NCBI RefSeq assembly: GCF_036971445.1
Contig: NC_091470.1
Span: 184,822,001-184,886,000 of the forward strand
DNA: 64,000 nt
Reading direction: 5' to 3'
Source: Narcine bancroftii
Lineage: Eukaryota
Below, one piece after another: positions 1,861 through 46,742 of the stretch. Both the position numbers and the translations under genes were made by a program. Under the pieces are notes generated by a model that searched no databases, was not told the DNA's origin, and worked only from the letters and a program-made list of their open reading frames with translations. The number at the start of each line of letters is the position of its first letter. Positions within the stretch are counted from its first letter, which is position 1.

Positions 1861-2445
1861 AGCATTTTACTTCCTTTTCACTCACATTCTTTGAAAATAT
1901 TTAACTGTCGCTGTATCTCAAGTCAAGAAAAGTCACCTTTATTTTTCGTTCATACCATAAAGACAAGATAGAATTTCTCTAGGACCACGGAGCATATTTA
2001 CATAAGTATAGGTTAGAATAGAAGTTCAATATTTTTAAAATATTATCAGTCCACAGTACCCAATCCCCAAATGTTCTGGGAGTTCAGGAGTGCGATGGCT
2101 TGGTGGTGGGGGGGGGGGAAAGCTCTTGCCCACTCTGGGCCCAAGGGCTGAAGAACCTCCTACCAGATGGCAGAAGGGAGAACTGTTGGTGTGAGGGATC
2201 CGTGGGGTCCTTTCGCCTGCATCGAGTGCCATTGACACCCGTCATGGTAGGACATGAGCCCCGGCGGCCTTTTCCCACTGACCCCACCATCCTCTGTGGG
2301 CCTCGTGGGTTCTGCAGGTTCCTCCCCCTCAATGGAGCTGCCTGAACATTATCAAACTTCCCCTTCCCACCCCCCTCCCAAAGCTTATGGATGAAGCCCC
2401 TAACCGGAGCAACTCCAACTGAGCAGGGATAAGGAGACATGTTAA

Positions 2446-7020: not shown

Positions 7021-7356
7021 CCCTAAACTTCTCCCCTTTCAGCTAAAAACTATGACCTTGTGCTGACTCACCACAAGGCAGGCGAACCGGCCCCGCTTGT
7101 AAGCCACACGGCGGGGCAGCTTGCCAAAATGGCGCCGTTGGGAGATTCCCTTCCTTCCAGCTCGGGGCTCAGAAACCCGTGCTTGGGGACCATGTGATGC
7201 ACGGGTGACATCAGTGACCTCCAGCGCGGTTCTCAGCCAGGTCCGGGCTGGGATTATAAGTGCAGCCCAGCAGCCTGCAATAAACTAGTCTGCTCACTGA
7301 GCTCAACCCATCTGGTTGCATGTATTATTGCAGGAGCAATGTAGCTGCTGCTACAA

Positions 7357-8124
7357 TTGGTGACCCCGACTGGTTCAAATGTCTTTGAACCCATCATGAG
7401 TGAGCCTGGGATCAGTGCTATAGCTGTGAAACTTTCTGAATTCTGCATTCAGGAGCCAGAGACCTGGTTTGTCCACACAGAGGCCCAGTTTCACTTCCAC
7501 CAGATTTTGTCTGACACGACCAAATTCTACCATGCGGTCGCTGCCCTGAACCAGGCCACCACCAGATGTGTGCTGCACCTTGTTCAGCACCCACCTGCTG
7601 AGGACAAGTACAAGACCATCAAGCGAGTGCTTACTGAGTCCCTCAGACTATCCAGACACCAGCGTGCCGCTCGGGTGCTGCATCTTGATGCCCTGGGAGA
7701 CAGGTCCCCAATGGAACTGATGGCTGAGATGCTCGCGCTCATAGGTGAGCACACCAACTGCCCACTTTTCGAGTGCATCTTCCTCGAACATATGCCCGTG
7801 GACATACGGCCACTGCTGATTCAGGAGAGCTTCATTGACCCAAGGAAGGTCGCCCAGAAGGCCCAAGAGCTATGGCTTGTAAATTCTAGGAAGGCTCAGT
7901 GGTCCAGCAGGTCACGAGGGACGGGCACGAGGAATGACCATGCCAAGCCCACCCCTAACACTGCAGTAGAGCACCTGGCCCCTGCAGGGGCCCCCAAGAG
8001 CAGAACCAAGGCCACAGCATCCGCTTCAGGCCTCTGCTTCTACCACCAGTGCTGGGGAGCCAAGGCTTGGAAGTATCATCAGCCCTGCTCGTTCCAGGGA
8101 AATGACCAGGTTGGCCGCTGTTAA
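7357..8124 (+). pseudogene. Gypsy gag
   Basis: 255-aa ORF with VKLSEF..PETWFVHTEAQF and a degenerate C-terminal knuckle (LCFYHQCWG...PC). It starts at the 5' LTR/PBS boundary. Confidence 0.8.
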
Positions 8125-11100
8125 TGGCTGCGGCAGCTGGCCAAGGACACAGCCTTCTCTACCTGCGGGACTCAGTCAGCGGCCTGCGGTTCCTTGTTGA
8201 CACTGGAGTCCAGATCAGCATCATACTGGCCATGGCCATCGAATCCAGGAAGCGACCTCGTGGACCTCCCCTCCATGCGGCCAACTCAATGGCAATCCGG
8301 ACGTATGGAGACAAGACAGTCCACTTCCAGATCGGCCAACAGAATTTTGCGTGGAGGTTCACCAACTTGTCCCTCCCGATTGCCATCCTGGGTGCAGACT
8401 TCTTCCTTGCACACGGGCTTCTGGTGGACATTCGAGGTAGGCACCTGGTGGATACCCGTACCTTCCAGGGCATTAACCTCGACGCCTCCCGCTCGGAGCA
8501 ACTGCAGATGGCCACAATCAGCATGCCCAGAGATGAGTTCCAGCAGATCCTGGACAAGTTCCCGACACTCCTCAAGGCACAGTTCTCCGCTGCCTCGCTG
8601 TGCCACAGGGTGTTCCACCACATCCCGACCCAGGGCCCGCTGGTTCATGCCAAGGCACGCCGGCTTCCACCTGACAAGCTCCAGGTAGTGAAGAAGGAGT
8701 TCTCACACCTGTTGGAGCTGGGGATTATTCGGCGGTCTGACAGCCCATGGGCCTCGCTGCTCCACCTGGTCCCGAAAGCCTCTGGTGGCTGGCGTCCCTG
8801 CGAAGACTATCGACAGCTCAACAAGGCAATTGTTCCTGACCGTTACCCCATCCCTCACATCCAGGACTTTACGGCCAACCTGCACAGCACAAGGGTCTTC
8901 TCCAAGGTTGATCTGGTGCGCAGATATCACCAGATCCTGGTGCACCCCGAGTACATATCCAATATGGCCATCATCACCCCCTTTGGCCTGTTCGAATTCC
9001 TGCGCATGCCATTCGTACTCAAGAATGACGTTCCGACCTTCCAGCACCTCATGGACTCAGTGGACAGGGACTTGGATTTCGTCTTTATTTAATTGAACGA
9101 CATCCTTGTCGCCAGCAAGGACCGGGCGCAACACAAGGCCCACCTATGTGTCCTTTTCTCCCAGCTGGCCGACTTCAGCCTTACCATCAACCCGGCCAAG
9201 TGCCAGTTCGGGAAAGAATCCATGCAGTTCCTGGGACATAGCATCACGGCCGAAGGAGCCACGCCCGCCGCTGCGAAGGTTGCCGCCATCAGGGAGTTCC
9301 CACACCCGGACAGCCTCAAGGGGCTGCAGGAGTTTGCGGGTATGGTCAACTTCTACAACCGATTCATCCCAGGAGCTGCGCGCATCATGCAGCCGCTGTT
9401 CACCCTCTTCGCAGCCAAGCACAAGACACTAGCTTGGAACCCAGAAGCCTGCACTGCATTTGAGGCCACAAAGGACACCCTCGCAAAGGCCGCCATGCTC
9501 TCCCACCCGCACACCGACCTGCGTATAGCGCTGTCTGTCAATGCTTCTGCCACAGCCGTCGGTGCCATCCTGGAGCAGCAGGTGAATGGACATTGGAAGC
9601 CACTTGCATTCTTCAGCTGCCTGCTCCACCCGCCGGAATGCAAGTATAGTGCCTTCGACCGCGAGTTATTGGGCATGTACCTGGCGATGTGGCATTTCTG
9701 CTATTTTTTGGAGGGGAGGACTTTTACCATCTTCACTGACCACAAACCCCTCACCCAGGTGCTCACGATGGCAAAGGATCCCTGGTTGACCCGCCAGCAG
9801 AGTCACCTCTCCTTTGTGTCGGAGTTTACCACCGACAATCGGCACAAGGTGGGGAAGGACAATGTGGTTGCTGATGCATTCTCGCGACCAGCCATCTGCG
9901 TGCTGATGCCCGGCCTCGACTTCGACCACCTCGCCCGGGACCAGGAAGCTGATGAGGAGACAAGGGCCTTCAAGACAGCCATCACCGGCCTGCAGTTCTG
10001 AGACCTCCTAACTCCGAGCGGCGAAGGCACCATCCTGTGCGATATCTCCTTGGGCACCCCGCGGCCAGTGGTTCCGCTGCAGTGGTGGAGGCAGGTCTTC
10101 TGTCACATCCACGACCTTTCACATCCGTCCATCAGGTCCACTGTCCGGATGGCGGATGGTGGCAGAACAGTTCGTATGGCATGGGCTGTGGAAGCAGATC
10201 ACGGGCTGGGCCAAAACATGCACCCATTGCCAGACGTCCAAGGTGCACAGGCACATCAGGGTGTCCGTACAGGAGTTCGAGCATGTCCGGGAACAGTTCA
10301 GCCACATTAACATGGACATCGTTGGGCCCTTACCTGTTTCCCGGGGCAACTGTTACCTGTTTACGGTGGTAGACTTCACCACTCGCTGGCCCGAGGCGAT
10401 CCCAATGCCAGACACCTCCACCGACTCCTGCTCCCGAGCCCTGCTGCATGGTTGGGTCACCCAGTTCGGCGTCCCAGCTCACCTCACCAGCAATCAGGGC
10501 ACCCAGTTCACATTTGCGCTCTGGGCACAGCTCGCCGACAGGTTGGGGATACAGCTACACCGCACCACAGCCTACCACCCTCAGGCCAATGGACTGGTCG
10601 AACGTCTACACTGCCACCTTAAGTCAGCGGTCATGGCCCACCTCACCGGTCCCGACTGGACAGACAAACTGCCTTGTGTGCTCCTGGGCATCCGCTCCAC
10701 TCCCAAGGAAGATCTGCAGGCATCATCCGCTGAGCTGGTCTACGGTGCGCCACTGGAACTACCTGGTGAGTTCGTCAACGCACCTCACAATCCCCAGCGG
10801 TCGCCACATGAACTACTTCCTCACCTCAGGGCACGCTTGGACTCGTTCGAACACTCACTGCCACCCAGGCATGGCACCCACCCGTCTCACGTTCCCGGCG
10901 AACTGCTTTCCGTGAAGTTCGTTTTCGTTCAGCGGGGCCCGACCACGGCACCTCTACAGCGACCATACGAGGGGACGTACAGGGTTGTGCAGCATTTCAG
11001 CTCGACATTCACGCTGGACATTGGCGGCAGGCATGACCTGTTTACCATGGACAGGATGAAGCCAGCGCACCTCGATCCCACCGAGCCCGTGGTCATTGCC

Positions 11101-11160
11101 CAGCCCAAGAAGGGAGGCTGCCTGGCAAAAAGGACATTGGCGCCGGTTCTGGGGGGGGGG
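8124..11160 (+). pseudogene. Gypsy pol (PR-RT-RH-IN), inactivated
   Basis: Motifs DTG, SPWAS.LHLV.K, DRYPIP, YSAFDRELL, TDHKPL, HINMDIVGPLP, YHPQANGLVER. The catalytic YxDD reads TAA-L-N-D at 9090-9101. There is a further stop at 9999-10001 and frameshifts near 10040-10150. Confidence 0.92.
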
Positions 11161-13889
11161 GCTGTGTGGCGGCTCACCACAAAGCAGGCGAACCAGCCCC
11201 ACTTGTAAGCCACATGGCGGGGCAGCTAGCCAAAATGGCACTGTCGAGGGTTTCCCTTCCTTCCAGCTTGGGGCTCAGAAACCAGCACTTGGGGACCACA
11301 CGATTCACGGATGATGTCAGCGCCCTCCAACACGGTTCTCAGGCAGGTCCGGGCTGGGAATATAAGTATAAACTAGTCTGCTCACTGAGCTCAACCCGTC
11401 TGGTTGCGTGTGTTATTGCACGAGCAGTGTAGCCGCCGCTACAACCTCTCGTATTTATCTCCCCCAATCCATGTGGAAGAAGCCTATTCGCATCCACTCT
11501 GTCTACACCTCTCATAACCTCGTAAGCCTCGATCAAATATTCCCTCATTCTTCTACGGTCCAGGGAATGAAGTCCTACATCTTATCTGCACTCTTTCTAT
11601 CTTATCAACCACGGAGATCTTTTTATAAAACATAATAAAATTCTGCTGAAACACTGCACAAAAATGTTATAGACAGTCATTTTGGTGTCACCACCCCCCT
11701 CCCCCCAATGATGGTGACCCCGGTGCGGTCCGCACTCCCCTAGTGATGTCAGTAGTGCCACTCACCTCTCAGATTAAGATTCTGTTGACACCAGTGATTA
11801 AGTGAAAAAACATACTAACGCTGGAGAAACTCAGCAGGTCAAACAGTGCCTTTATGTAGCAGAGATACATCACCGACGTTTCGGGCCTAAGCCCTTCATC
11901 GAGGTGTGGGGGGGGGCAACCACGAGAGATATCCGAACTAAAGGGGGGAGGGGGGTGGTGAGGGTGGGAGATGATAGGTGGAAGGGAGATTGCAGGAAGG
12001 GGGGAGAGGAGTCTAGGCTGGGTGGAGTAGGAACTGGAATGACTAGTTAAAAGTGGGGTCGGGGGGAGGCGAGCTGATTAGTGGAATGGAATGAACTCAA
12101 TGTTCATGCCCTGGGGTTGGAGGGGGCCCAGACAAATAATGAGGTGTTGTTCCTCCAATCTCTCCATAAAAGCAACGCTGGAACGGCCTTGTAGGCCTTC
12201 TCCTCTTCCATCATCAGGGTCCTGGGTCCCAAACCCTCCTTCCTCGCCCCGGTGCAAGGTCCCAAACAGATCTTTCAGGTGTAGCAACACTTCACCTGCA
12301 CCTCCAAAGAAATCACTAACTGCATCCGGTGCACCTTCTGTGGCCTTCTCTACGTCGGGGAGACCGGTGGCAGATTAGGAGATCGCCTCACCCCAGCTCC
12401 TCCCTTCCATCCGCCACAAAACCATTTTGATTCTGAGTCACCCTCTCGAGTTCTGTCCATGGCCTTCCGCACTACCCCCCCCCCCTTTGGTTCAGACACC
12501 TCTCATGTTTCCCCCCACACCTTGATGATGGGCTCAGGCCCGAAACGTCGGTGATGTATCTCTGCAACATAGAGGACACTGTTTGACCTGCTGAGTTTCT
12601 CCAGCATTCGTGTGTGTTTCAAATCAGAGGTGCTTCCGTGGGGCGCTTGCATGGGGCCCAACGATGCCCGCTTTTTTTTTGGTGGGGGACGTGCAGCAAT
12701 CCTTGTTCTGAACCCATTTAATTAATGGCTACAGTAGGTCTGCTTCCTGCGCCCGGGTCAAATCTGTCAATTCTAACTCCCCCAGCTTGAGGTTTCCTGT
12801 GTGACTCCGATTTGAGTCAACCTGTGTGTGCAAAACCTCCTGAAGGAAATGCATACGCGCCTGAGACGATGCAAGGGACAGAAGGTGAAGCCAGTGGAAG
12901 TGACAAGATCAGCCCTGCCCGCACAGGGAGCAGAGGAGCAGATGTGGAAACAGGCCTTACTCACCAGCAACTGTGGGAAGAGTTACATCATGATATCTGG
13001 TGCCGGCTTGAGGCTGTGAAATGTTTCTGACCACCAGATCCATGAGATGGAGCATTGTCCAAGGGACAGTGAAGTCTACAGCATAGGCCCTTCGGCCCTC
13101 GATGTTATATGGACCCATTTATTCCACACCCCCTCCCCCACCCAAATAAGCTCCTGCGTTCAGGGCAAAAGGGTAAAAGGTTTAGGGGGAAGATCTTCGC
13201 CCAGAGAATGTGGGAACAAGCTGCCAGCTGAATGCGGGCTCAGTTTTAAAATTTGAAAAGAATCTGGGCAGGTCCGTGGATGGGAGGGGTATGGACCGGG
13301 TGCAGGCCAGTGGGACTTGACAGAAAAATAGATTGGCACCATCTAGAAGGGCCTCTTTCTGGGCTATAATGTTCTGTGGTTCCAATCGTTTGGACATATG
13401 ACTCTATCATCCCAAGCATTCTCCCTTTTTTAAGCAAGGGAGCCACATTTGCTATTCTCCAATCCTCCGGCCCCTCCCCTGGGAGATCATCGTCAATGAC
13501 CGAGCTACCCATTTCCTCCCTTCCCACAGCAACCTGGGGTAAATCGCATCCGGCCCCAGGATATTACCCTTCTTCTGTCCAGCTTGTTCTATTCTGACCT
13601 CACCCTGACCAAGGTCCTTTTCTCTGGTGAATACTGAAGCAAAATATTAATTTAGGACTGTCCCTGCCTCCTCTGCCACCAGGCACACATTGCCTCCTTT
13701 ATCCTTAAGCGGTCCCACCTTCACTCCCTCAACCTTCTGTTCTACACATATGCATAGAACGCCTTGGGGTTCTCCTTGATCCTACATGACAGGCCCCCTT
13801 CGAGTTCTTACGTTCCTTCCTGGCTATCATATAATTTTCATGAGCCCTTCTTGTTTCCTCTTTTCTAAATCTAACATAGGCTTCCTGTT

Positions 13890-23559: not shown

Positions 23560-24405
23560 CTGAAAATAAAGGTTTATATATTCACGCAAGTGAAGTTTGT
23601 TCACTGTAAATACAGTGTAGTATTTATGTCTTTTAAACTCTTAATACAGATTAGTTAGCCATTGTAAAATTCTCAAGCAACCGGAAAATACATTTATCCG
23701 GCATCTACCAATCCCTATAGGACTGGACTAGAAACAATTTGCAGTTTCCAATAAGGACCGAGGCCATGGGGGAGACATACAAACTCTGACCTGAGGGCTG
23801 GGTCGAACCCGGGTCTCTGGGGTCTTGGGACAGGGTCTAAATGGCGGCCGGGCCCACTCTCACATAACCGGTCTGATGGAAGGCCGGCTCTCTTCTGCTG
23901 CCTGCTGGACAACAGCTGGGCACAATTTCAAAAGGCCATTGGAGCTGGAATGGGTCATTCAGCCCATCAAATCTGCCCTGCCACTTAATCAGGAGCCGTT
24001 CAATCCTCCCACTGCTTGGGCCTTCTCCCCAGAACTTTTGGTGTCCTGGCTAATCAAGAATCTATCAATTTCTGTCAGATACACCCAATGGCCCAGCCTC
24101 CACAACTGCCTGTAGCAACAAATCCCACAGATTCACCACTCTGGCTGAAGAAATTCCTCCGCTTCTCTGTTCTAAGCGGGTTCCCTTCAGTCCTGAAGTT
24201 GTGCTCTCTTGACCTGTGCTCTCCCATCAGGGGAAACAATCTTTCTATGTTTAGTCTGGTCCACACCTTTCAACATTTGAAATCTCTCCCTCATTCTCCT
24301 AAATTCCAACCAATACAGACCAAGGTCTGTCAAACGCTCCTCATGTAACTCTTTCATTCCAAGAATCTTCCTTGCGAACCTAAACGAAAGGAGGCAGTTG
24401 CTTAC

Positions 24406-24724
24406 CTGATCTGGAACCACTTCTCTATGGGATAGGAGAGGGACTCGTGTCCCACCACGCACACGTACGTGAGCGAGGAATTCACGTCCGCCAGAAGGAT
24501 GGTCATTTGACTGGCCGTGCTGTAGGTCCCGCTCGCATCTGGGACCACCGGGAAATTGCTGACCCAGTCCAGCTCCGTCAAATCCCTCTCCGTCCTCCAG
24601 GTCACGTAGATGTCAGCCGGGTAGAAGCCTGAGACGTAGCAGGCCAACGTCACCTTCTGATCCCGGACCTCGTCGTCCGTCTGGAGTCTGATAGGGGTGA
24701 TCGTTGGCTGACGGAAGTTCAGTT
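24406..24724 (-). CDS. Ig C1-set constant domain exon 3
   Basis: ttttgttttccgcttcgggcag|AA, phase 1. Translation ELNFRQPTI..KVTLACYVSGFYPADIYVTW..GTYSTASQM..TYVCVVGHESL. It ends ATC AG|gtaagc, a phase-2 donor that reads Arg-TAA (24402-24404) if unspliced. Confidence 0.9.
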
Positions 24725-27005
24725 CTGCCCGAAGCGGAAAACAAAACATTGGGGGTTGGAGGCTCGGTGGGATGGCTGATCACCTTGGCCGATCGCCTGG
24801 CCGACAATGGGATGTCCCGAAACCATACCGCAAAGGAAAGACCCTCAGCCCATCTAGTCTGAGCCAAACTATAATTCTGCCCAATCCCACTGACCCACAG
24901 TGGGTCTGTGCACATTCCATCGCCCTCCCATCCTTGGAGTAGTCCAAATTTTCCTTCAATGTTAAAATTGGCCCCACATTCGGCACAGTCAGAGTAGCGG
25001 TTAGCACCATGCCTTTACAGCGATCAGGACCGGGGTTTGAATCTCGCACTCTCTAGGAAGTGATGCTGCGACTGTTTAAGGCATTGGTGAGGCCAAGTTT
25101 AGAGTATTGTGTTCAGTTCTGGTCTCCAAATTATAGGAAGGATATAGATAAGGTGGAGAGGGTGCAGAGAAGATTTACAAGGATGTTGCGTGGCTTACAA
25201 CATCTAGAGTATGGAGAAAGATTAGAGAGACATTAAAGTTAGGCAACCCCATGAGCCCAATTGAACCCCCCCCCCCCACCAGTACATTTTGAAGGGTGGG
25301 AGGAAACCAGAGCCCCCCTGGGGAAAACTCGTGGGGACACAGGTAAAATGTACAAACTCCTTACAGACAGTGCAGGATTTGAACTCCAGGTCCGGTCCCG
25401 ATCACTGGCGTCGTAGCAGTGTTGCACTGACCGCTTTGTCAAATGTGATGCTTAGTACTTTCCTGTTTCCATTTCAGATTTACATCATCTGCATTGTTTT
25501 TTTCAGTTTCATTTCTATAGCGCCTTTCAGGACACCCCAAACCAATTTACAACCAGCGGCAAGAACTGGTACACAGCAAGCCCCCCCTCAACAATAGGAG
25601 CAGAATTAAACCATTCAGCCCATCAAGTCTGCCCCATCATTTAATCATGACCTGATCCATTTTCCCCGCTCAGCCCTGCTGTCTCCCCGTAACCTGGCTG
25701 ATCAAATCCCTCTCAATCCCTGCCTCAAGGACCCTGCTTCCACAGCCGCCCATGGCAACAAGTTCCACAGACTCACGTTTCTCTGACCAAAGGTAATTCT
25801 TCTGCATCTCTGTTTTAAATTGTCGCCCTTCTATCCCGAAGTAGTGCCCTCTTGTGCTAGACTCCCCGACAACGGGGAATTACTCTGTCTAGGACTTTCA
25901 GCATTCAAAATACCTCTACAGGGTTCCTTCAATGGGAACAGTCCAAGAGCCGACAAACATTCCTCATATACTAATCCTTTCACCCCACCCAGCGCATGCC
26001 CTGTTCTCGCTGCTGCCAGCAGGAAAGGGGTATCAGTGCCACAAGACTCGTACCACCAGGTTCAGGAACCCCTCTTCAATGACAAACTCAATCAGGGGAT
26101 CATTTTATTTTGGCACTTTATTGATTTTTTTTCTCTCTCTCTGTATTGCACAGTCAGTTTGTTAACATTTCTTTATTTGTTTTACATGTGTACATTTTTT
26201 TGCACTACCAATAAGTGAGAGTTCTGCCACGCCCAGAGGAAAAAGAATGTCAGGATTGTATGTGATCTCTGACAATAAACCTGGAATCTAAATCTTCTCT
26301 GAACCTTCTCCAACGCCAGCATGTCTTTTCTCAAATAAACCAGCCAAAACTGAACTCCAAGTGGGGTCTCACCAGTGCCCTGTAGAGTCTCAACATCACA
26401 TACCTGCCCTTCCTCTAGAAATGAACGATAACATTGCATGTGTCATCTTCAACACTCCATCGATCATCTCAAGCCTTGAGTTCAACATCAAGCTATCTCA
26501 CTGTTTCGAAGATATTGGTTAAACGTTGAACAAATCCCGAGTGTTTACGTACGGGTACAAACAGAATATTTAGATGACATACTAAGGAACTAAAGAAAAG
26601 ATTCTTGTTAACTCGGCCTGCAACATCACGGGCACCCGCCTTCACTCCATCTACAAGAAACAGCCTCTATCCTCAAGGACCCACCACCACCCAGGCCCTC
26701 TTCACACTGCAGCCATCAGGGGAAAAGGGTCCAGGAGCCTGAAGATGAGCTCAAGGACAGCTTCTTCACCGCTGTCATCAGATTCCTGAACCATAATCCC
26801 TTAACCTATCAGGCACTATTTCTATTAATTTATTGTAAGGTAGTTGATGTGAACGTTTGTGCTGTGATGCTGCCACAAAACAATGAATTTTGCGATTTGT
26901 TCGTGACAATAGATTCCGATTCTGCTAGATTTGGGATCGATGTGTCATGAGCAAGGGGAAAGCTGGGGGGTGGGCAGGAACAGGCAAAGCACTGAGTTCT
27001 CCTAC

Positions 27006-27326
27006 CATTTGTCTTATAAATGCTCTGGACCACCCCATGTGGCACCGAGACGTGTTGAACCTCGCACGAGTAAACGGTGCCTTGGTTCCACTCTTCCTTG
27101 GATGCCACCAGCTCGCTTCGGGAACAGTAGGTGCCGTTGCCGTACAAAACCGGTGCAGAGCTTTTGATGTTGTCCAGCACTGGAATCCTGTCAGCCAGCC
27201 AGCGGAAGGAGATTTCACCGGGGTAATAGCCGGCTGCCAGACAGGCAACGGTGGCCTTTCCCGTCATATCCAGTTCCTCGAAGCTCGGGGGCAAAGCGTA
27301 CACCTTCGGCGTCCTGGAATACTGAC
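27006..27326 (-). CDS. Ig C1-set constant domain exon 2
   Basis: tgtagcag|GT (NAGNAG acceptor) ...AATG|gtagga; 321 nt; phase 1-1. Translation GQYSRTPKVYALPPSFEEL..KATVACLAAGYYPGEISFRW..NGTYCSRSEL...EEWNQGTVYSCEVQH. Confidence 0.93.
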
Positions 27327-28710: not shown

Positions 28711-29586
28711 CTTTGGCTTGGCTTCGCGGACGAAGATTTATGGAGGGGGTAAAAAGTCCACGTCAGCTGCAGGCTCGTTTGTGGCTGACAAGTCCGATGC
28801 GGGACAGGCAGACACGATTGCAGCGGTTGCAAGGGAAAATTTGTTGGTTGGGGTTGGGTGTTGGGTTTTTCCTCCTTTGCCTTTTGTCAGTGAGGTGGGC
28901 TCTGCGGTCTTCTTCAAAGGAGGTTGCTGCCCGCCAAACTGTGAGGCGCCAAGATGCACGGTTTGAGGCGTTATCAGCCCACTGGCGGTGGTCAATGTGG
29001 CAGGCACCAAGAGATTTCTTTAGGCAGTCCTTGTACCTTTTCTTTGGTGCACCTCTGTCACGGTGGCCAGTGGAGAGCTCGCCATATTAAACGATCTTGG
29101 GAAGGCGATGGTCCTCCATTCTGGAGACGTGACCGATCCAGCGCAGCTGGATCTTCAGCAGCGTGGACTCGATGCTGTCGACCTCTGCCATCTCGAGTAC
29201 TTCGACGTTAGGGGTGTAAGCGCTCCAATGGATGTTGAGGATGGAGCGGAGACAACGCTGGTGGAAGCGTTCTAGGAGCCGTAGGTGGTGCCGGTAGAGG
29301 ACCCATGATTCGGAGCCGAGCAGGAGTGTGGGTATGACAACGGCTCTGTATACACTAATCTTTGTGAGGTTTTTCAGTTGGTTGTTTTTCCAGACTCTTT
29401 TGTGTAGTCTTCCAAAGGCGCTATTTGCCTTGGCGAGTCTGTTGTCTATCTCATTGTCGATCCTTGCATCTGATGAAATGGTGCAGCCGAGATAGGTAAA
29501 CTGGTTGACCGTTTTGAGTTTTGTGTGCCCGATGGAGATGTGGGGGGGCTGGTAGTCATGGTGGGGAGCTGGCTGATGGAGGACCT
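28711..29586 (-). mobile_element. RTE-clade LINE 3' fragment, copy 1
   Basis: FTYLGCTIS...RLAKANSAFGRL..VW..TKISVYRAVV.PTLL.GSESW...LRW.GHV.RM. Flanked by the repeat CACCTACACAT. Confidence 0.88.
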
Positions 29587-29663
29587 CACCTACACATACA
29601 CAATGGTTAAATGATACCCCACCGACACAAACACCATGTTTAAATGATTCTCCACCTACACAT

Positions 29664-29784
29664 CTTCTTTGGCTTGGCTTCGCGGACGAAGATTTATGGA
29701 GGGGGTAAAAAGTCCACGTCAGCTGCAGGCTCGTTTGTGGCTGACAAGTCCGATGCGGTACAGGCAGACACGATTGCAGCGGTT
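29664..29784 (-). mobile_element. RTE-clade LINE extreme 3' fragment, copy 2
   Basis: Nearly identical to the 3' end of copy 1 (ctttggcttggcttcgcggacgaagatttatgg...). Confidence 0.85.
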
Positions 29785-29942
29785 GGTTAAATGATACCCC
29801 ACCTACACAAACACCATGTTTAAATGATTCTCCATCTACACATACACAACGGTTAAATGATACCCCACCTACACAAACACCATGATTAAATGATACCCCA
29901 CCTACACATACACAATGGTTAAATGATTCTCCACCTACACAT

Positions 29943-30864
29943 TCTTTCTTTGGCTTGGCTTCGCGGACGAAGATTAATGGAGGGGTAATGTCCACGTCAG
30001 CTGCAGGCTCGTTTGTGGCTGACAAGTCCGATGCGGGACAGGCAGACACGGTTGCAGCGGTTGCAAGGGAAAATTGGTTGGTTGGGGTTGGGTGTTGGGA
30101 TTTTCCTCCTGTGTCTTTTGTCAGTGAGGTGGGCTCTGCGGTCTTCTTCAAAGGAGATTGCTGCCTGCCGAACTGTGAGGCGCCAAGATGTACGGTTTGA
30201 GGTGATATCAGCCCACTGGCGGTTGTCAATGTGGCAGGCACCAAGAGATTTCTTTAGGCAGTCCTTGTACCGCTTCTTTGGTGCACATCTGTCTTGGTGG
30301 CCAGTGGAGAGCTCGCCATACAACACGATCTTGGGAAGGCGATGGTCCTCCATTCTAGAGACGTGACCCACCCAGCGCAGTTGGATCTTCAGCAGCGTGG
30401 ATTCGATGCTGTTGGCCTCTGCCATCTTGAGTATTTCAATGTTGGTGATGAAGTCGCTCCAATGAATGTTGAGGATGGAGCGGAGACAACGCTGGTGGAA
30501 GCGTTCTAGGAGCCGTAGGTGATGCCGGTAGAGGACCCATGTTTCAGAGCCGAACAGGAGTGTGGGTATGACAACGGCTCTGTATACACTAATCTTTGTG
30601 AGGTTTTTCAGTTGGTTGTTTTTCCACTCTTTTATGTAGTCTTCCAAAGGCACCATTTGCCTTGGCGAGTCTTTTGTCTATCTCGTTGTCGATCCTTGCA
30701 TCTGATGAAATGATGCAGCCGAGATAGGTAAACTGGTTGACCGTTTTGAGTTTAGTGTGCCCGATGGAGATGTGGGGGTGCTGGTAGTCATGGTGGGGAG
30801 CTGGCTGATGGAGGACCTCAATTTTCTTCAGGCCTACTTCCAGGCCAAACATTTTGGCAGTTTC
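29943..30864 (-). mobile_element. RTE-clade LINE 3' fragment, copy 3
   Basis: ORFs 30589-30894 and 29997-30656 carry the RTE C-terminus with a CxxC...H motif (FPCNRCNRVCLSRIGLVSHKRAC). It is diverged from copy 1 and has a different 5' breakpoint. Confidence 0.88.
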
Positions 30865-32240
30865 CACATACACAATGGTTAAATGATACCCCACCTACAC
30901 AAACACCATGGTTAAATGATACCCCACATACACAAACACCATGGTTAAATGATACCCCACCTACACAAACACCATGGTTAAATGATACCCCACCTACACA
31001 AACACCATGGTTAAATAATACCCCACCTACACAAACACCATGGTTAAATGATACCCCACCTACACAAACACAGTGGTTAAATGATATCCCACGTACACAA
31101 ACACCATGGTTAAATGATACCCCACCTACACATACACAACAGTTAAATGATACCCCACGTACACAAACACCATGGTTAAATGATACCCCACGTACACATA
31201 CACCATGGTTAAATGATACCCCACGTACACAAACACCATGGTTAAATGATACCCCACCTACACAAACACCATGGTTAAATGATACTCCACCTACACATAC
31301 ACAACACTTAAATGATACCCCACGTACACAAACACCATGGTTAAATGATGCTCCACCTACACAAACACCACGGTTAAATAATGCCCCACCTACACAAACA
31401 CCACGGTTAAATGATGCCCCACCTACACAAACACCACGGTTAAATGATACCCCACCTATACAAACACCATGGTTAAATGATACCCCACCTACACAAACAC
31501 CATGGTTAAATAATACCCCACCTACACAAACACCATGGTTAAATGATACCCCACCTACACAAACACCATGGTTAAATGATTCCCCACCTACACAAACACC
31601 GTGGTTAAATGATATCCCATGTACACAAACACCATGGTTAAATGATACCCCACCTACACATACACAACAGTTAAATGATACCCCACGTACACAAACACCA
31701 TGGTTAAATGATACCCCACGTACACATACACCATGGTTAAATGATACCCCACGTACAAAAACACCATGGTTAAATGATACCCCACCTACACAAACACCAT
31801 GGTTAAATGATACCCCACCTACACAAACACCATGGTTAAATGATACTCCACCTACACATACACAACAGTTAAATGATACCCCACGTACACAAACACCATG
31901 GTTAAATGATGCTCCACCTACACAAACACCACGGTTAAATAATGCCCCACCTACACAAACACCACGGTTAAATGATGCCCCACCTACACAAACACCAAGG
32001 TTAAATGATACCCCACCTATACAAACACCATGGTTAAATGATACCCCACCTACACAAACACCATGGTTAAATAATACCCCACCTACACAAACACCGTGGT
32101 TAAATGATATCCCACGTACACAAACACCATGGTTAAATGATACCCCACCTACACATACACCACGGTTAAATGATACCCCACGTACACATACACAACAGTT
32201 AAATGATACCCCACCTACACAAACACCACGGTTAAATTAT
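30865..32240 (+). repeat. 33-bp minisatellite, roughly 40 units (further units at 28650-28710, 29587-29663 and 29785-29942)
   Basis: Unit AAACACCATGGTTAAATGATACCCCACCTACAC with recurring variant units. Confidence 0.95.
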
Positions 32241-34301
32241 ATTATGTCTTCTTAAATTTAGAAAAAAAATTTTTATCACCTTAAAGCGTCAAATATTAAC
32301 TTTCTTTTCAATCTTTTTATTAAACATATTATAATACATGAGGGGAATAGAATCTCGAATTGATAGTAAAAACAGAAACATCAATATGTTGCAATACTTT
32401 AATACAATGTGTAACATAACAACCTATTGAACAATGCTAACCCTTTCTCCTCAATTCGGAATATCCAAAAAGGAGAGAAAAAAAATCTTGTTAAAATCCC
32501 ATGTAACCTACCCAAATGAATTAAAAACAAGGCCAAGTGGCCTAAACCAAGATTTATCCCAACAGATAGTACAAACTATTTATCTGGTCCTTACCAATTA
32601 AAAAAATAACATGAATCCAGGACAGTCTGGAAGATAAAGTGAAAATACAGATGAACTCCTACGAAAATAGTTTAGAATGGGATGGCGAGTCTCTTCAAAC
32701 TTAACGGAGGTACCAAAAGTGCAGCTTCTCATTGCTTTACTAAACTGAAACATGACATAATTTGAGAGCGCCATTGCCCTAACGCCGGGGAATTAGAAGA
32801 CATGGGCCCATTTATGGACCATGATCATAACCTAACAGATGAGGGTGTCTAGATTCTTTGGTGCTATCTGGTTTCAAGTTCCTGTCACCTGATTCCCATG
32901 TATCTTTAATTAGTGTTCGAGGTTTAGATTTATAAAGATTTTGGGGATTTTTTTTCTTTATTTTTTTTCTATTGTTTTTAAATCTTATTGTTTTTATTGT
33001 GCTCGGAATTTTGTTATGATGTTAATATTGTATGGTGTTTCAATTATTTTCTTTTTTGAAAACTGTAGCGCCTTGTTCGAGTGTTTATATTGTAAAACAA
33101 CAATAAAAAATATTTTAAAAAGAAAAAGGATTTTTCAGCATTCATTATCCAATTATTCCATTCTTCATGCATGGCTTGTTCTTGCAGACATCCATTTGTG
33201 TAACAAAAAGTAACAACTTAATAAAATGTTTTAAACTGGTTAAGACAGAAGCTGGCGACAGACTGAACCGCGAATCGCTTTGAAACGGTGCTTCGCCCAC
33301 CTACTGGCTCAGTTTCACACACGTATTGTACTATTATGTTTGGGGGCCATCTTAAACCACTGATATGAGCTAAAACCATGAAATTCAGACTGAAATTGGC
33401 GTCTCATCTTGTCTGAAGGTCATCTTATCTGCCGAAAGATAGTCACATGCAGCACGGTAACAGCCCTTTTCGGCCCACAAGGCCAGATCGCCCGATTACG
33501 CCCGATTGACCTATACCTCCGGCACGTTTCAAGCAGTGGGAGACCCCCGGGTGGAAAACCCACGCAGACTCGGGCAGAACATACAGAACTCCTTCCAGGC
33601 AGATTCGAACCCCTGTCCTGGTCACCAGCACTGTAACAGCGTCGCGCTGACTGCTATGCCCGCCATCTGCCCATAATGCAGCCAAAGACATCGTTCAGAG
33701 GGAGGGCTTCAGGTTTCTAGATCATTGGGCTCTCTCCCAGGAAAGATGGGACCTGTTCCGATGGGACAGCTGGCATCTGAACTGTAGGGGGACTAATATC
33801 CTTGCGGAAGGTTTGCAAGTGCTGTTCTTGGGAGGGTGGGAACCAGAGGGCCAGAGTAGAGAGAGGAGTGGAGGAGAGAACAGATGATGTAAACATTGCA
33901 TGCACTGTTAGAAGTCAACGGGTTGTACATGGTGGAAATTTTCTAAAATGCATCTATTTTAATAAAACGAGTTTTGTAGGAAAGGCAGGCGGGACTAGAG
34001 CGGGAATTGGCAAGTGGAATGATGACATTGTGGCCATTAGTGAAACTTGGTTGCAGGAGGAGCAGGGCTTACAGTTCAATGTTCTGGGCTCACATTTCTT
34101 TATTCGCAATAGAATGGGGGAGATGAAAGGGGGAGGAGTGGCGTTGCTCACCCGGGAAAGTAGCACAGCAGTGTGCAGGCAGGTCAGGCCCAGAGGATTC
34201 GTCTCCTGAGGCTATATGGGGGAAGCTGAGGAATAGGAAAAGGTATGACCACACTCATAGACCACCCAAAAGTCACTAAGAATTGGAGGAGCAATGCTGA
34301 A

Positions 34302-35379: not shown

Positions 35380-38300
35380 GGGAACCCAACCCCAGTCCTC
35401 ATCGAGGGCTCGATAGCGGAGAGGGTCAAGAACTTCAAATTATTGGGGGTGAACATCTCCGAGGATCTGTCCTGGAGCCTCCACATTGATGCAATCACAA
35501 AGAAGGTTTGCCAGCGGCTAGACTTGGTGAGGCGTCTGAGGAGATCCAGTACGTCACCAAAGATTCTCGTAGAGGAGTCACGTGATGGAGTAGTGGCCGG
35601 ACGGTGAACTCCAGCCCTCTCCAGAAAAGTCGGAAAAAATAAAGGAAAATACAAAGGCACAAAAATAAAAATTGAAGTAAAGTGAGTATAAAGGTGGAAA
35701 GAAGATGGCGACGAAAAAAGAAAAATCGAAACCAACGGTAAGAAGAGAGGAAGAGAAGACAACGGAAGAAGAAGGAGAAGGCCTTACCTGTTCGAAGAGG
35801 CCCGCGGTGGAGAGAGAAACCCGCTCCCTCAGGTCGGTAGAAAGTGGACTACAAAAATGGCTCGCTGAGCCGAGTAAAAGTGCGCAACCGCACATGCAAA
35901 AAAACACACCGACGGGAGGGGTGACCAGCTGGGGAGTCGATCTCCACAGCCGGCAATGACAGCTGCAGAACACCTGCAGCAAGAGGAGAACATAGAAGAC
36001 AACGAAAACAAGAAAGAAGAGAAGAAAAGGACAACAAAGAAACAACAGATGGCCAACCCAGAGGAAGAAGAAGAGGAAGAGGAAGAGTACAGTGAAATAG
36101 AAGAAGAAGGGAAAGGCAAGATAAAGGATATACTTTCTCTTATTAAAGAATACATGGAGTCATTTAAAGAATGGCAAGCGCAAGAATTTAATGATTTAAG
36201 AAGAAGAATAAACAATACAGAAGAGAAAATGAATAAAATAGATATGACCATATCAGAAATGGGAAAAAGAATGGACAAGGTGCAAGAACGAGAAGCAGCA
36301 GTAGAAATGGAGGTAGAGGACTTAAAAAAGAAATTAGAGGAATCTAATAAAAAAGTTAAAGAGACACAAGAACTGTTAGCTCAGAAAATAGATATAATGG
36401 AAAATTATAACAGAAGAAATAACATAAAGATAGTGGGCCTTAAGGAAGATGAAGAAGGCAAGAATATGAGAGAGTTTATAAAAGATTGGATCCTAGGATG
36501 TCCAGAACTACAACAAGAAATGGAAATAGAAAGGGCACATAGAGTATTGGCCTTTAAACCACAACCACAACAAAAGCCAAGATCTATTTTAGTAAAATTC
36601 CTAAGATATACTACAAGAGAAAAGGTACTGGAGAAAACAATGGAAAAAGTAAGAGAGGACACAAGCCACTGGAGTACAAAGGGCGAAAAATCTTCATTTA
36701 TCCAGATATAAGTTTTGAACTCCTGAAGAAGAGAAAGGAGTTCAATGCAGCAAAGGCGATTTTATGGAAGAAAGGGTATAAATTTATACTAAAGCATCCA
36801 GCGGTATTGAAAATATTTGTTCCAGGACAGCAAAACAGACTATTCTCGGATCCAGAGGAAGCACGAAAATTTGCAGAACAATTACAAAATAGACTGAGAG
36901 ATGAAGACGTGTAACGAGAGTACAAAAGACTGCGAACTAAAAAGACACATAAGTTTTGAACTCCGGAAGAAGAGGAAGGAGTTCATTACAGCGAAAACGA
37001 TCTTATGGAAAAAAACTATTCTCGGATCCAGAGGAAGCAAGGAAATTTGCAGAACAACTACAAAACAAGCAGAGAGATGAAGACATGTAATAAAAGTAAA
37101 AATGACCACGATTTATATGTATGTGGGTAAAGAGGTATATGTGTGTATATGTATAGTGTGCATACATGAATGTATCCGTATTTAGAGGAAAATATAGAGA
37201 GTATAGACAAGAATTAATAAGGGAAGGAAATGGAATGGAGGGAATAAGGAGGGAATTAAAAGAGTGACCTTTGTTACATATGAAAAGTGAAATCTTTTCT
37301 GGGGGAGGAGTTACGGTCACTGCAAAATCAGCTGACGCTTGCGAGTGAATTCGCAAATCCAAATGGAGAGGGGAGATGTGGTTGTCCGACAAGGGATAAA
37401 GGACAACTCAGGAGGGGAAGGGGAGATTGGGGCTAAAGAAGTTTTAAATAGGAGAATAAGGAAAATGTTGGATGTTTTAGGAATGTTGTCTTATAAAGGG
37501 TTCAAAACAAGAAAACAGAAATGGATAAGAAGGAAAGGTAATGATGGAGAAACGGAAAGGGAAGATAAACAAAGTATAAAATGGCTACGTTGAACTATAT
37601 GACTTTAAATATTAATGGAATACATAACCAAATTAAAAGGAAGAAACTGATAAATTTACTGAAAAAAGAAAAAATTGATATAGCATTTGTGCAAGAAACA
37701 CATTTAACTGAATTGGAGCACAAGAAATTAAAGAGAGATTGGGTAGGACACGTAACAGCAGTATCGTATAATTCAAAAGCAAGAGGAGTAGCTATATTAA
37801 TTAGTAAAAATGTGCCATTTAAAATAGAAGAGGAAATAATAGATCCAGCAGGGAGATATGTAATGATAAAATGTCAGATATATTCGGAGTTTTGGAATCT
37901 ACTCAATGTATATTCACCTAACGAAGAAGATCAAAAGTTTATGCAAGATATCTTTTTGAAGATAGCAGATACGCAAGGGAACATATTAATAGGAGGGGAT
38001 TTCAACCTGAATTTGGATTCAAATATGGACAAAACTGGGAAAAAAATTAACAGAAAGAACAAAGTAACCAAATTTATAATTAAATCGATGGAAGAAATGC
38101 AACTTTTGGATATATGGAGGAAACAACACCCAAAGGAAAAGGAATATTCATATTACTCGGCTAGACATAAAACATACTCAAGAATAGACCTATTTTTGTT
38201 ATCAGCCCGTATGCAAGATAGAGTAAGAAAAACAGAATATAAAGCTAGAATACTATCAGACCATTCACCCTTAATATTGACAATAAAGTTAGAGGACATC

Positions 38301-39760
38301 CCTCCAAGAATGTATAGATGGAGATTAAACCCCATGTTACTTAAAAGGCAGGATTTTAGAGAATTTATTGAAAGACAAATTAAAATGTATTTTGAAATAA
38401 ATACGAAATCAGTGAAAGATAAGTTTATACTATGGGATGCAATGAAAGCATTCATTAGAGGGCAAATAATAAGTTATGTAACCAAGATGAAAAAGGACTA
38501 TAATCAGGAAACAGAGCAGTTGGAAAGGGAAATAGTAAATATAGAAAAAGAATTAGCAATGAAGGAAGATACAACTAAATGAAGAGAATTGGCGGATAAA
38601 AAAATAAAATATGAAACACTACAAACGTATAAGGTGGAGAAGAACATAATGAAGACAAAACAGAAATATTATGAACTAGGGGAAAAAACGCACAAAATTC
38701 TAGCATGGCAGCTTAAGACAGAACAAGCTAAGAAAATGGTATTGGCATCAAGGAAAAAAGACAAACAAATTACATATAATTCAAAGGAGATCAAGGAAAA
38801 CTTTAGAGAATTCTATGAACAATTATACCGAACTGAAAACGAAGGGAAAGAAGGGAAAATAGATGGATTTCTAACTAAAATTGAACTACCAAAACTACAA
38901 ATAGAGGAACAAAATAAATTAACAGAGCCATTTGGAATAGTAGAAATACAAGAGATAATAAAAAAATTACCAAATAATAAGACACCAGGAGAGGATGGAT
39001 TCCCAATAGAATTCTATAAAGCATTTAAAGACTTATTAATTCCGCCCCTCCTGGAAGTAATCAACCAGATTGATAAAACACAAAGCTTACCAGATTCATG
39101 TAAAACAGCAATAATTACAGTAATACTAAAGCAAGGGAAAGATCCACTCACACCAGCGTCATATAGACCAATATCTTTACTTAGCACAGATTATAAGATA
39201 ATAGCTAAACTATTAGCAAACAGATTAGCAGAGTATGTACCGAAAATGGTAAATCTAGACCAAACTGGATTTATCAAAAAAAGACGCACAACAGACAATA
39301 TTTGTAAATTTATTAACTTAATTCATGCAGTAGAAGGGAATAAAGCGCCAACAGTAGCAGTTGCTTTAGAAGCACCAAAGATTCTCGTAAACCTGGCATT
39401 CTGGCCAGTTGCATCACTGCCTGATACGGAGGCGCCAACTCTCAGGGCAAGAATAAACTCCAGAAGGTCTTCATAAAGCACCCTTTATCCTCAAAGACCC
39501 ACACCACCACCCAGACCATGCCCTCTTCACTCTGCTACCACCAGAAGCCTAAAGACAAGCCCTCAGTGGCACAAGGATGGCTTCTTCCCCTCTGCCATCT
39601 GATTCCTGAATGATCAATGAACCAAAGACACTGCCTGACTTTTCATGCACTCTTTTTTCTATAGTAATGTTGTAAGATGGTTATAATATGAACGTTTGCA
39701 CTGTGATGCTGACGCAAAACCCCGAATTTCGTGACTTGTTCGTGACAATAAATTCTGATT
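35380..39760 (+). mobile_element. Rex-Babar/L2-like LINE 3' fragment interrupted by the L1
   Basis: VKNFKLLGVNISEDLSWSLHIDAITKKVCQRL..RRLRR lies to the left. The remainder (PHHPDHALFTLLP-like) resumes right of the TSD. Confidence 0.7.
35572..39372 (+). mobile_element. L1/Tx1-clade LINE, 5'-intact and 3'-truncated, with 17-bp TSD
   Basis: 5'UTR, then ORF1 35956-~36913 (coiled coil, ENYNRRNNIKIVGL, IERAHR; frameshifted). ORF2 starts at 37581 with APE motifs (NING, QETH, GGDFN, SRID, SDH) and the RT start, ending at AVAL(D). Flanked by CACCAAAGATTCTCGTA at 35555-71 and 39373-89. Confidence 0.93.
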
Positions 39761-39861: not shown

Positions 39862-40179
39862 CAGTGTTGCTGACATGTTTGGAGACAGGTGAAGGGAGAG
39901 TACTGTGAGACACGTGGCAGCTATAGACGGAGCCCTGGGTCCACTGGGCCGTGGCAATGGTCAGCTTGCTCATCTCGGTGAAGGTCGCGTTGGGCTCCAG
40001 CAAGGACATAGTCTGCGAGACCCCTTCATCCACGTCCTGCCCATCCACTGACCAGGAGATGGAGATGCCTTCAGGGTAAAAGTCCTCTGCCACGCACAGC
40101 AAAGTGATATCCTCCTGCTGGAGAAGGTCCTCAGGCCGCGGCTGGTGAAGGTGAACCACGGGAGGTGACTGCGGAGGGG
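39862..40179 (-). CDS. Ig C1-set constant domain exon 1
   Basis: ctctctcattgcag|CC...ACTG|gtaagc; 318 nt; phase 1-1. Translation APPQSPPVVHLHQP..ITLLCVAEDFYPEGISISW..NATF..SKLTI...W..GSVYSCHVSH has the C1-set motifs (CxxxxFYP, W, YxCxVxH). Confidence 0.93.
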
Positions 40180-43323: not shown

Positions 43324-43701
43324 CAGGGTCCACGGTGACTGTCACTCCGCACCCGCTCCAGTCAGTGCTGTAGGGGAAGTAACTGTTGGAGCTGCCGCAG
43401 TAATACCTAGCAGAATCGTCCCGTTGCAAGCCCATGATGGTGAGGGAGAACCTCTTGCTGGCCCAATTCTTGGAACCAGTGAACCTCTCCGTCCCCGGCA
43501 CAGCGTGGAGCGCCAATGTTGATCCCGGAGTCCAGTACAGGATCCACGAGATCATCTTGTCGGTGGGCTTGGCGGAACCCCAGACCAGGAAATGGTCGTC
43601 CAGGTTCCTGGAGGTGAAGCAGTCTAGTGTCACCGTTTCATTTTCACGGCGCCTCATGGATATTGGGGAGATGTAGAGAGTATCATCAGCCAAAATCAGG
43701 C
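43324..43701 (-). CDS. Exon encoding a germline-joined V(J) Ig domain of an antibody-like gene (probable UrIg-type)
   Basis: Acceptor tttttttctgcatttcaccgcag|GC and donor CCTG|gtaggt, both phase 1. Translation: (x)LILA-DDTLYISP..TVTLDC..FLVW..SWIL..RFTGS..FSLTIMGLQRDDSARYYC-GSSNSYFPYSTDW-SGCGVTVTVDP. It shows the B-strand Cys, C-strand Trp, DxAxYYC and a J-like GxG-xTVTV in one exon. No CACAGTG/CACTGTG heptamer separates the V and J parts. Confidence 0.93.
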
Positions 43702-43929
43702 CTGCGGTGAAATGCAGAAAAAAACACACACACAGTAAACACTAGAGGAAATCAGCTGGTCTCGCAGCACCCAGAGAAGACGTTTCAGGCCTGAGCGAGA
43801 AAGAACAAGAAGATATGGAAATTAAATACTGGATCCGATGAGAGGAAACATGAGAATTGGTTGTGTCTCTATGAGAAGGATGGAGAGAGAGTGCAATCTG
43901 GGAGAAAAGGTGGCGGGGGACGAAGGATG

Positions 43930-45070
43930 TGGATTTTACCCGTGTGGACTTTAGAGAGGCCTTTGACAAGGTCCCACATGGGAGGTTAGTCAGGCAGGTT
44001 CCAACGGTCGATATTCATGGTGAAGTAATGAACTGGATTCGACAATGGCTGGACAGGAGAAGCCAGAGAGCAGTGGTGGACGACTGCTTCTCAGACCGGA
44101 GGCCTGCAACTAGCGGCGGGCCTCAGGGCTCGGTGCTGGGACAATTGTGATTTGTAGTCTCTAACAACCTGGATGATAATGTGGTAAATTGGATCTGCAG
44201 ATTTGCTGTAGATGGTGAGGAAGGTTTTCAGAGCTTGCAGGGAGACCTGGACCAGCTGGGAAAATGGGCTGAAAAATGGGAGATGGAGTTTAATGCAGGC
44301 AAGTGTGAGGTGTTGCATTTTGAAAGGGCAAACCAAGAAAGGCCGTACACGGTGAATGGTGGGGCACTGAGGAATGTTGTAGAACAGAGGGATCTGGGAA
44401 TACAGATACATAATTCCCTGAAAGTGGACAGGGTTGTAAAGAGAGTTTTTGGCACATTGGCCTTCATAATTCAAAGTATTGAATATAGGAGTTGGGAAAT
44501 TATGTAAAAGTTATATCAGACATTGGTGAGGCTAAATTTGGAGCATTGTGTGCAGTTTTGGTCACCAAACTACAGAAAAGATATTCATAAGTTAGAAAGA
44601 GTGCAGAAAAGATTTATTAGAATGTCGCCTGGACTTCAGGAACTGAATTAGATGGAAAGGTTAAACAGGTTAGGACTTTATTCCCTGGAGCACAGAAGAA
44701 TGAGGGAAGATTTGATAGAGGTATTTAAAATTATGAGGGGGATTGACAGAGTAAATGCAGGTAGGCTTTTCCCGCTGAGGGTCGGTGAGATACAAACCAG
44801 AGGACATGGGTCACGGGTGAAAGGGGAGAAGTTTACGGGGAACATGGTGGGGAACCTCTTCACTCAGAGAGCGATGGGAGTGTGGAACGAGCTGAGGTGG
44901 TGAATGCGGTCTCCATTGTAACATTTAAGAAGAATTTGGACAGTGATGGGTGGGGTGTGGAGGGCAATGGGCTGGGTGCAGGTCAGTGGGACGAGGCCAA
45001 AATAAAATGCTTTGCCACAGACTAGAAGGGCTGATGGGACCTGTTTCTGTGCTGTGATGTTCTGTGGTTC
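43930..45070 (+). mobile_element. Decayed CR1 3' fragment
   Basis: DFREAFDKVPH, PQGSVLG, W.MEFN..KCEVLHF and RRMREDLIE. Confidence 0.85.
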
Positions 45071-45833: not shown

Positions 45834-46742
45834 GTCCATTAGGTTGTTTTTGCTATCAATTGCATTTTCTCTCTCGCGTAACACCAGAGTATTGGTCTCG
45901 AGTTGCCCAGGACAGGCAGGAAGGACGAATGACCTCCTTCTGCGGGCTATTAGAGGCTGGGTGGACCACCCTAGGTAGCGATCCTGGGTGTTTGGATTGG
46001 GATAACATCCTCTGGGGCTCATGGGCCGCCCACCAGCCCTCGTCCAAACTCACTTCCCCAGGGAGGAAGACTTTGGAAGGGTTCCCACCGGTCCGGGGAT
46101 TATCCACTTGGCTGGCAGATTTGGGGGCGGGAGGGGCAGATCTGAGGCCAGGGGAGACGTACCTGGGCGAAGGGCCAACAGTGACAAGAACCACCACATC
46201 TTCTGAACCCGTCGCCACTGGGTGGAGCAGGTCGGGGGACTGAGCACAGATGGGGCTCCCAATACGGTCCGATTCTGCTCGCAGAGACAAGGCTCAAGAT
46301 CCAAGAGGACATCTGATGATTGAATCCCGACTTTCTCACAGTGGATACTGTCCGCACTGGCAAAAGTCCAACGTACCAACTAATAGCTCACTTATAAAGT
46401 TTGGCAGAACCCCCAATGCTGCGTATCTCCTGAAGCCGGCCCATTCACTCCCTCACCAAAGACGTTGTCCCATGTTGATCTTGCCACGATGGTGCAGTCA
46501 CAGCTGAACCCAGGGGCCAGGGTCTTGGAGCAGGTGGTCAGAGGTACTTCGGGCGCGATGCTGAGGCATGGAGGTTCAGGGGTGCCAGGACCCACCCGCG
46601 GCTGCCGGCTCACCTCTCTAGGGTTCCGGGATTGATCCTGACCTTGGCCGCTGTCGGTGGGGTTTGCACGTTTCTCACCCCCAACATTACCTCACCACTG
46701 AATGTGTGCAGGAATTGACGTCCGTGAATGTAACTGCAAGAA

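Follow-up and report, generated by a model that had tools for sequence, protein, structure and literature searches.

A non-rearranging UrIg orthologue in Narcine bancroftii, whose invariant G-strand cysteine probably joins two V domains

Introduction

A stretch of 64,000 nucleotides from Narcine bancroftii (the window, to whose first letter the positions below are counted) contains an immunoglobulin V exon that ends in a J-like strand with an additional cysteine. What is this gene, and what does the cysteine bind? An earlier note, made from the sequence alone, had proposed a V domain with a fixed CDR3 that probably does not pair with a light chain. We consider it highly probable (about 0.93) that the gene is the orthologue of UrIg, non-rearranging, MHC-linked and secreted, and that the G-strand cysteine likely forms a symmetric V-V disulfide in a homodimer which likely contains no light chain.

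UrIg was described by Flajnik et al. (2023, J Immunol 211:1042) and is the tsIgH of Kondo et al. (2023, PMC10331284). According to PMC12227049, which cites the 2023 J Immunol paper on this point, it is an IgG-like, disulfide-linked homodimer 'without IgL chains'; in the same source it is given as secreted, made in the liver and present in the extracellular matrix. UrIg2 (Flajnik et al. 2025, Sci Adv, PMC12227049) shares with it the non-rearranging VJ and the cysteine Cys114, and represents the nearest solved fold (PDB 9DMX, 2.8 A). It differs, as described there, in being membrane-bound, with up to 9-11 C domains, located beside the IgH/TCR loci and faster evolving; it has two G-strand cysteines (112 and 114), which form the interchain disulfides 112-112 and 114-114 between the G strands, and a C1-C1 disulfide.

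Gene structure and transcripts

The gene lies on the minus strand and consists of five coding exons, leader-V-C1-C2-C3, with no membrane anchor in the spliced model. The leader is split: its first coding part, located by a leader scan, covers 46163..46199 (37 nt) and is followed by a phase-1 intron, while the transcript of this exon extends upstream as a 5' UTR. The end of the leader and the whole VJ domain are encoded by a single exon of 378 nt (43324..43701). The V domain is complete within one open frame ending at 43324-43405 (minus strand); 43324 is the final base of the exon, and a GT donor comes next. The C1 exon (39862..40179) encodes a C1-set Ig domain, the C2 exon (27006..27326) contains an NGT sequon at a place like that of Asn297 in IgG, and the C3 exon (24402..24724) ends with TAA. 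All four introns have GT-AG ends, and the spliced frame is open over 457 residues before the TAA is reached. Neither a transmembrane segment nor a tailpiece was found in this model, whose highest 19-residue hydropathy is 1.43, against 2.1-3.0 in TM-bearing relatives.

Public contigs support all four splice junctions: the leader-V joint (46162-43700, GT..AG ends) and the V-C1 joint (43324-40179) are contained in contigs of run X1, the C2-C3 joint (27006-24724) in those of X1 and X2, and the C1-C2 junction is supported by matching loose contig ends of run X1. These two runs are among three of one study, presumed to be RNA, which are represented here by contigs only and whose tissue is unstated. 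The V exon is present in one of the three runs, where a contig of 978 nt matches it with 0 differences; we do not count this agreement as proof of invariance, and draw no ranking of expression from depth.

Contigs of run X1 also overlap from C2 into the next intron (about 26147-27005, minus strand, 0 differences, one run). This intron carries AATAAA/ATTAAA signals at 26177, 26122 and 26109, and a read-through past C2 gives a tail of 57 residues, beginning GRRTQCFACSCPPP, which overlaps repeat-like sequence. An intron-retaining or early-ending V-C1-C2 transcript may exist, minor if real. The intron between C1 and C2 includes a long tandem repeat (30756-32255), probably a minisatellite, which gives a repetitive open frame of 499 residues. 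Retroelement remains, recognized by eye from ORF translations, are located at 7345-11208, 2433-4142, 35878-39476, 28766-30677 and 43875-44903; they comprise a stop-broken Gypsy-like gag/pol/integrase set as well as CR1-like and L1-like LINE pieces, several of them within UrIg introns.

Orthology and genomic position

Judged by its sequence, the gene is an orthologue of UrIg. The homologue searches yielded four proteins at E <= 1e-12 among 119 candidates, and a fifth was obtained from a cluster look-up; a search limited to V-length proteins gave no match. The V domain is 84, 77, 72, 72 and 72% identical to these five orthologues (P0001-P0005, in this order), and 30-38% identical to the four UrIg2 proteins compared. 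P0005 is GCC18650.1, the protein from the look-up, which the Methods of PMC12227049 give as UrIg, and the houndshark gene described in PMC10331284 corresponds to P0003. In the supplement of PMC12227049 (fig. S2A), the V of nurse shark UrIg ends STDWSGCGVTLTV, also given as STDWSGCGVTLTVKA. The stingray model P0002 (XP_059827057.1) carries a RING/B-box (TRIM-like) part upstream of UrIg, which is probably due to a gene-model fusion; no match of this kind occurs within the 64-kb window.

The phylogeny was inferred from 39 V domains, namely this V, 16 family proteins and 22 others, with four isoform duplicates excluded. In this tree, the Narcine bancroftii V is placed within the UrIg clade (support 98/98), next to P0001 and a stingray sequence. 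In a search of PDB sequences, UrIg2 (9DMX) ranked first among the single-domain matches that span the full V, with E 1.5e-14 for the stretch, and the alignment pairs TDWSGCGVTVTV with TDFCSCGTTLKV; a solved structure of UrIg itself is found neither among the PDB sequence matches nor among those of Foldseek. With UrIg as described by Flajnik et al. and Kondo et al., the gene has in common the single-exon VJ, the split leader, three C1-set exons, the secreted form, the MHC linkage and the DWSGCGVT G strand, in addition to the V identity of 72-84%. New compared with known UrIg are the further species, the extra cysteine in C2 and the possible minor transcript into the intron that follows it.

A search of the genome gave three matches, of which one is strong (the gene itself, E 1.7e-80); the other two, with E-values of 4e-5 and 4e-4, are a light-chain-like V and a TCR-like V. 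UrIg is present as a single close copy in the Narcine bancroftii genome. The gene is located at C5:184.87 Mb. Of six MHC class I matches, four fall within C5:189.8-191.1 Mb, about 4.9 Mb from the gene, and MHC class II alpha is found at C5:191.4 Mb, about 6.5 Mb away. From class I and class II alpha on the same contig, the gene is linked to the MHC; the genome search for class II beta was blank, and its controls gave no signal either. For elasmobranchs, PMC10751288 assigns UrIg to the MHC class III region.

The G-strand cysteine and its partner

The reverse complement of 43324-43405 reads YYCGSSNSYFPYSTDWSGCGVTVTVDP. It encodes the CDR3 GSSNSYFPYSTD (43361..43396, minus strand), in which 8 of 12 positions are invariant in six UrIg sequences, and the J-like G strand WSGCGVTVTVDP (43325..43360, minus strand), supported by alignment and by the AlphaFold2 strand 111-120. 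The TGC codon of the non-canonical cysteine occupies 43349..43351 (minus strand), and in the alignment this residue matches Cys114 of UrIg2. Counting back from G-V-T-V-T-V puts a serine in the W/F place and the cysteine at x of GxG, as the earlier note had read this atypical strand. The register in which W-S-G-C would represent (W)GxG was rejected, since the register is fixed by the terminal G-V-T-V-T-V and by the alignment with UrIg2. Counted from Cys97, UrIg2 reads D110 F111 C112 S113 C114 (fig. S3 of PMC12227049); the cysteine of the gene is at 114 and its serine at 112. UrIg keeps one G-strand cysteine and has a serine in the place of the UrIg2 Cys112.

The stretch WSGCGVT is unchanged in 6/6 UrIg sequences. 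Its cysteine is found in the same six, in 13/13 aligned family rows and in all 20 family proteins retrieved. None of these 20 UrIg-family proteins contains the canonical (W/F)GxG; conversely, 28 canonical [WF]GxG[TS] motifs from 139 non-family proteins of the same search include no case with a cysteine at x. Because WSGCGVT is invariant and the canonical motifs do without this cysteine, the G-strand motif is not a product of chance.

FR2 (WGSAKPTDKMISWI, 43541..43582, minus strand), which reads WGSAKPTDKMISWILYW, is invariant at 13 of 17 positions in the six UrIg sequences; for CDR1 the count is 4/12, for the CDR2 region 2/13. That FR2 and CDR3 are so constant hints at a fixed ligand for the GFCC' face. 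No change is seen within UrIg at Ile47, Trp49 and Tyr97 (V-query numbering) of the VH/VL-type face. At the places that we take to be hallmarks of VH/VL contact, the FR2 Gln is replaced by Ala and the J Trp by Ser, while the Trp of ISWI and the Tyr before Cys2 are kept. The VH/VL face of UrIg is lost only in part, at the former two places and not at the latter two, and the three invariant residues would be compatible with a partner on it.

The AlphaFold2 model of the V domain (pLDDT 90.0, 13 sequences) predicts an unbroken strand over 111-120. With this model, Foldseek places chains of 9DMX first and third (rmsd 1.9 and 1.4 A), and no other match listed has a lower rmsd; by E-value, ordinary VH domains follow close behind. 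The earlier reading of the cysteine as lying inside a diglycine bulge is correct for its position at x of GxG, but the G strand of UrIg2 is without a bulge according to PMC12227049.

In 5/5 orthologues the mature chain contains exactly nine cysteines, that is, eight canonical ones and the G-strand cysteine; Kondo et al. also remark on the single extra cysteine (PMC10331284). A disulfide-linked homodimer of orthologue chains with one spare cysteine can therefore use only that one. In UrIg2, the V-V contact is formed by the edge strands A and G and not by the GFCC' face, and the 114-114 bond packs on Trp36 and the canonical disulfide, across the two-fold axis (PMC12227049, including the supplement and the legend of its fig. 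S4). The proposed V-V interchain disulfide is supported by this bond of the aligned cysteine, and the proposed lack of a light chain agrees with the homodimer published for UrIg.

It is improbable, though the best surviving of the alternatives, that the gene is UrIg and its cysteine engaged in another bond, either with matrix proteins or with the C2 cysteine of another dimer, which would lead to oligomers. UrIg does not possess the second G-strand cysteine of UrIg2, and its location in the extracellular matrix (PMC12227049) would suit such a bond. Furthermore, there is a second spare cysteine in Narcine bancroftii. It lies in C2 (NGTY-C-SRS, 27124..27126, minus strand), four residues after the sequon Asn that corresponds in place to the glycan-bearing Asn297 of IgG CH2; a contig over 27010-27159 matches with 0 differences, and 5/5 orthologues have a serine instead. 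The chain of this species accordingly has 10 cysteines versus nine in the orthologues, so that the argument from an only spare cysteine is not directly valid for it, and the G-strand cysteine, which had been called unpaired, is so within V without being the only spare one of the chain. Against another bond, it is this cysteine that is invariant in the family (13/13 aligned), the aligned residue of 9DMX is the one packed across the two-fold axis (PMC12227049), and orthologues with it as their sole spare cysteine are reported as covalent homodimers. In Narcine bancroftii, the C2 cysteine could confound a non-reducing gel, and a C-to-S mutant of the G strand could remain a dimer through C1-C1 and C3-C3 contacts. 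Because of these contacts and the C2 cysteine, a dimer that persists in the mutant would be an unsafe refutation of the V-V disulfide, which we continue to prefer.

Germline joining

Within 120 nt after Cys2, the best RSS-like match has 6 mismatches to the general consensus, compared with 2, 3 and 3 in the rearranging V genes L005, L006 and L003 of the same genome; the germline-joined light chain L002 likewise has 6. The V-C1 intron, read in its three sense frames, contains no WGxG/FGxG J segment. With neither an RSS nor a canonical J motif in the intron, CDR3 and the J-like strand are therefore germline-encoded, and the proposal of a fixed CDR3 is borne out. Among the genes used for comparison, L005 and L006 are two VH genes and L003 is a TCR-like V, all three on C11 and with a 23-bp RSS; L002 is a germline-joined light-chain-like VJ with a canonical FGRG at C9:204.6 Mb.

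Germline-joined immunoglobulins of elasmobranchs (IgM1gj; the light chain L002) have the germline VJ and the missing RSS in common with UrIg, and L002 differs in retaining the canonical FGRG as its J motif. Such genes occur in multi-copy clusters, and their heavy chains pair with light chains. It is very unlikely that the gene descends in this way from a rearranging IgH cluster and that its cysteine is bonded to a paired light chain, although the V-C-C-C layout is like that of IgM1gj, the VH/VL face is kept in part, and Kondo et al. compare the extra cysteine with those of IgM and IgW (PMC10331284). (W/F)GxG is absent from all 20 UrIg-family proteins, and the C1 of the gene offers no additional cysteine; the genome has a single close copy, on C5 with the MHC, and its RSS-bearing VH genes are on C11; and UrIg is reported to be a liver-made homodimer without light chains (PMC12227049). 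The gene shows neither the canonical WGxG J strand nor the RSS or the IgH-cluster membership by which IgM, IgW, IgNAR and IgM1gj are recognized.

That the gene is UrIg2 itself, the paralogue that is membrane-bound and located next to IgH/TCR, is refuted by the tree and the identities and has next to no probability left: in the PDB, no full-length V match is better than 9DMX by sequence or by fold, and the G-strand cysteine is common to both, but V is 30-38% identical to UrIg2 versus 72-84% to UrIg, the two form separate clades in the V tree, and the gene has only three C exons with a stop after C3, no TM segment, a location on the MHC contig and a serine at the place of Cys112. Of the features that define UrIg2 (TM segment, repeated C domains, two G-strand cysteines, position beside IgH/TCR), none was found.

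A putative third clade of UrIg-like proteins

Four shark proteins with a [DE]WCxC[GA] G strand (P0020, P0030, P0033 and P0055; from the best 150 of 158 matches, E <= 0.001) form a third group besides UrIg and UrIg2. They belong to bamboo shark, whale shark, smooth-hound and catshark, and their accessions include GCC32115.1, XP_078087760.1 and XP_072368086.1. Support for this group is 88/84, below the starred level, and 95/90 when P0020 is left out; it is nested in the family clade of 17 rows (99/96). In the three of the four that were compared, V is 31-44% identical to UrIg and UrIg2, and two members possess a TM segment. The whale shark has UrIg, UrIg2 and a third-clade protein as separate entries. 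Searches by the name 'UrIg3' and by the three accessions did not find the clade in the literature covered, to which the 2023 J Immunol paper does not belong.

In the Narcine bancroftii genome, a third-clade V query matched the UrIg gene and ordinary V/C exons but no orthologue, and V queries of UrIg2 from catshark and sawfish, one of them under a stricter filter, likewise matched this gene and ordinary exons but no UrIg2 orthologue. As UrIg2 is reported in other batoids, this may reflect either a loss or an assembly gap. Tentatively, and at less than even odds for the whole, the G-strand cysteine could be the hallmark of a family with three or more non-rearranging VJ-C1 paralogues, among them UrIg, UrIg2 and an undescribed membrane-anchored clade with two cysteines. 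According to the same joint reading, a membrane-bound, edge-paired V dimer with two cysteines would be ancestral, close to the gene that RAG split, and the Narcine lineage would seem to retain only UrIg, adding the free cysteine in C2.

Discussion

By analogy with the UrIg2 crystal, two UrIg V domains would meet edge-on by their A and G strands, with a Cys114-Cys114 bond packed on the core Trp and the canonical disulfide, and C1-C1 and C3-C3 would associate in the manner of Fab and Fc. The homodimer, the liver expression and the matrix location would apply here by transfer from papers on other species, and the presumed V-V geometry comes from a paralogue that is about 30-38% identical and has two G-strand cysteines, UrIg having one. 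The V domain of IgNAR and camelid VHH are likewise heavy-chain-only, with altered residues of the VH/VL interface. However, the genes of these two rearrange, and each V domain is a free monomer; unlike them, the V domain of UrIg is fixed and likely paired covalently.

The interpretation with which this study began is supported in substance, and it had already been published: the UrIg story, including the disulfide of the G strand, is known from the earlier work. With its conserved CDR3 and its free GFCC' face, UrIg would bind a putative fixed ligand, which would make it an innate, bivalent 'IgG-like' binder; to this family Narcine bancroftii contributes a further orthologue and with it confirmation that the cysteine is invariant.
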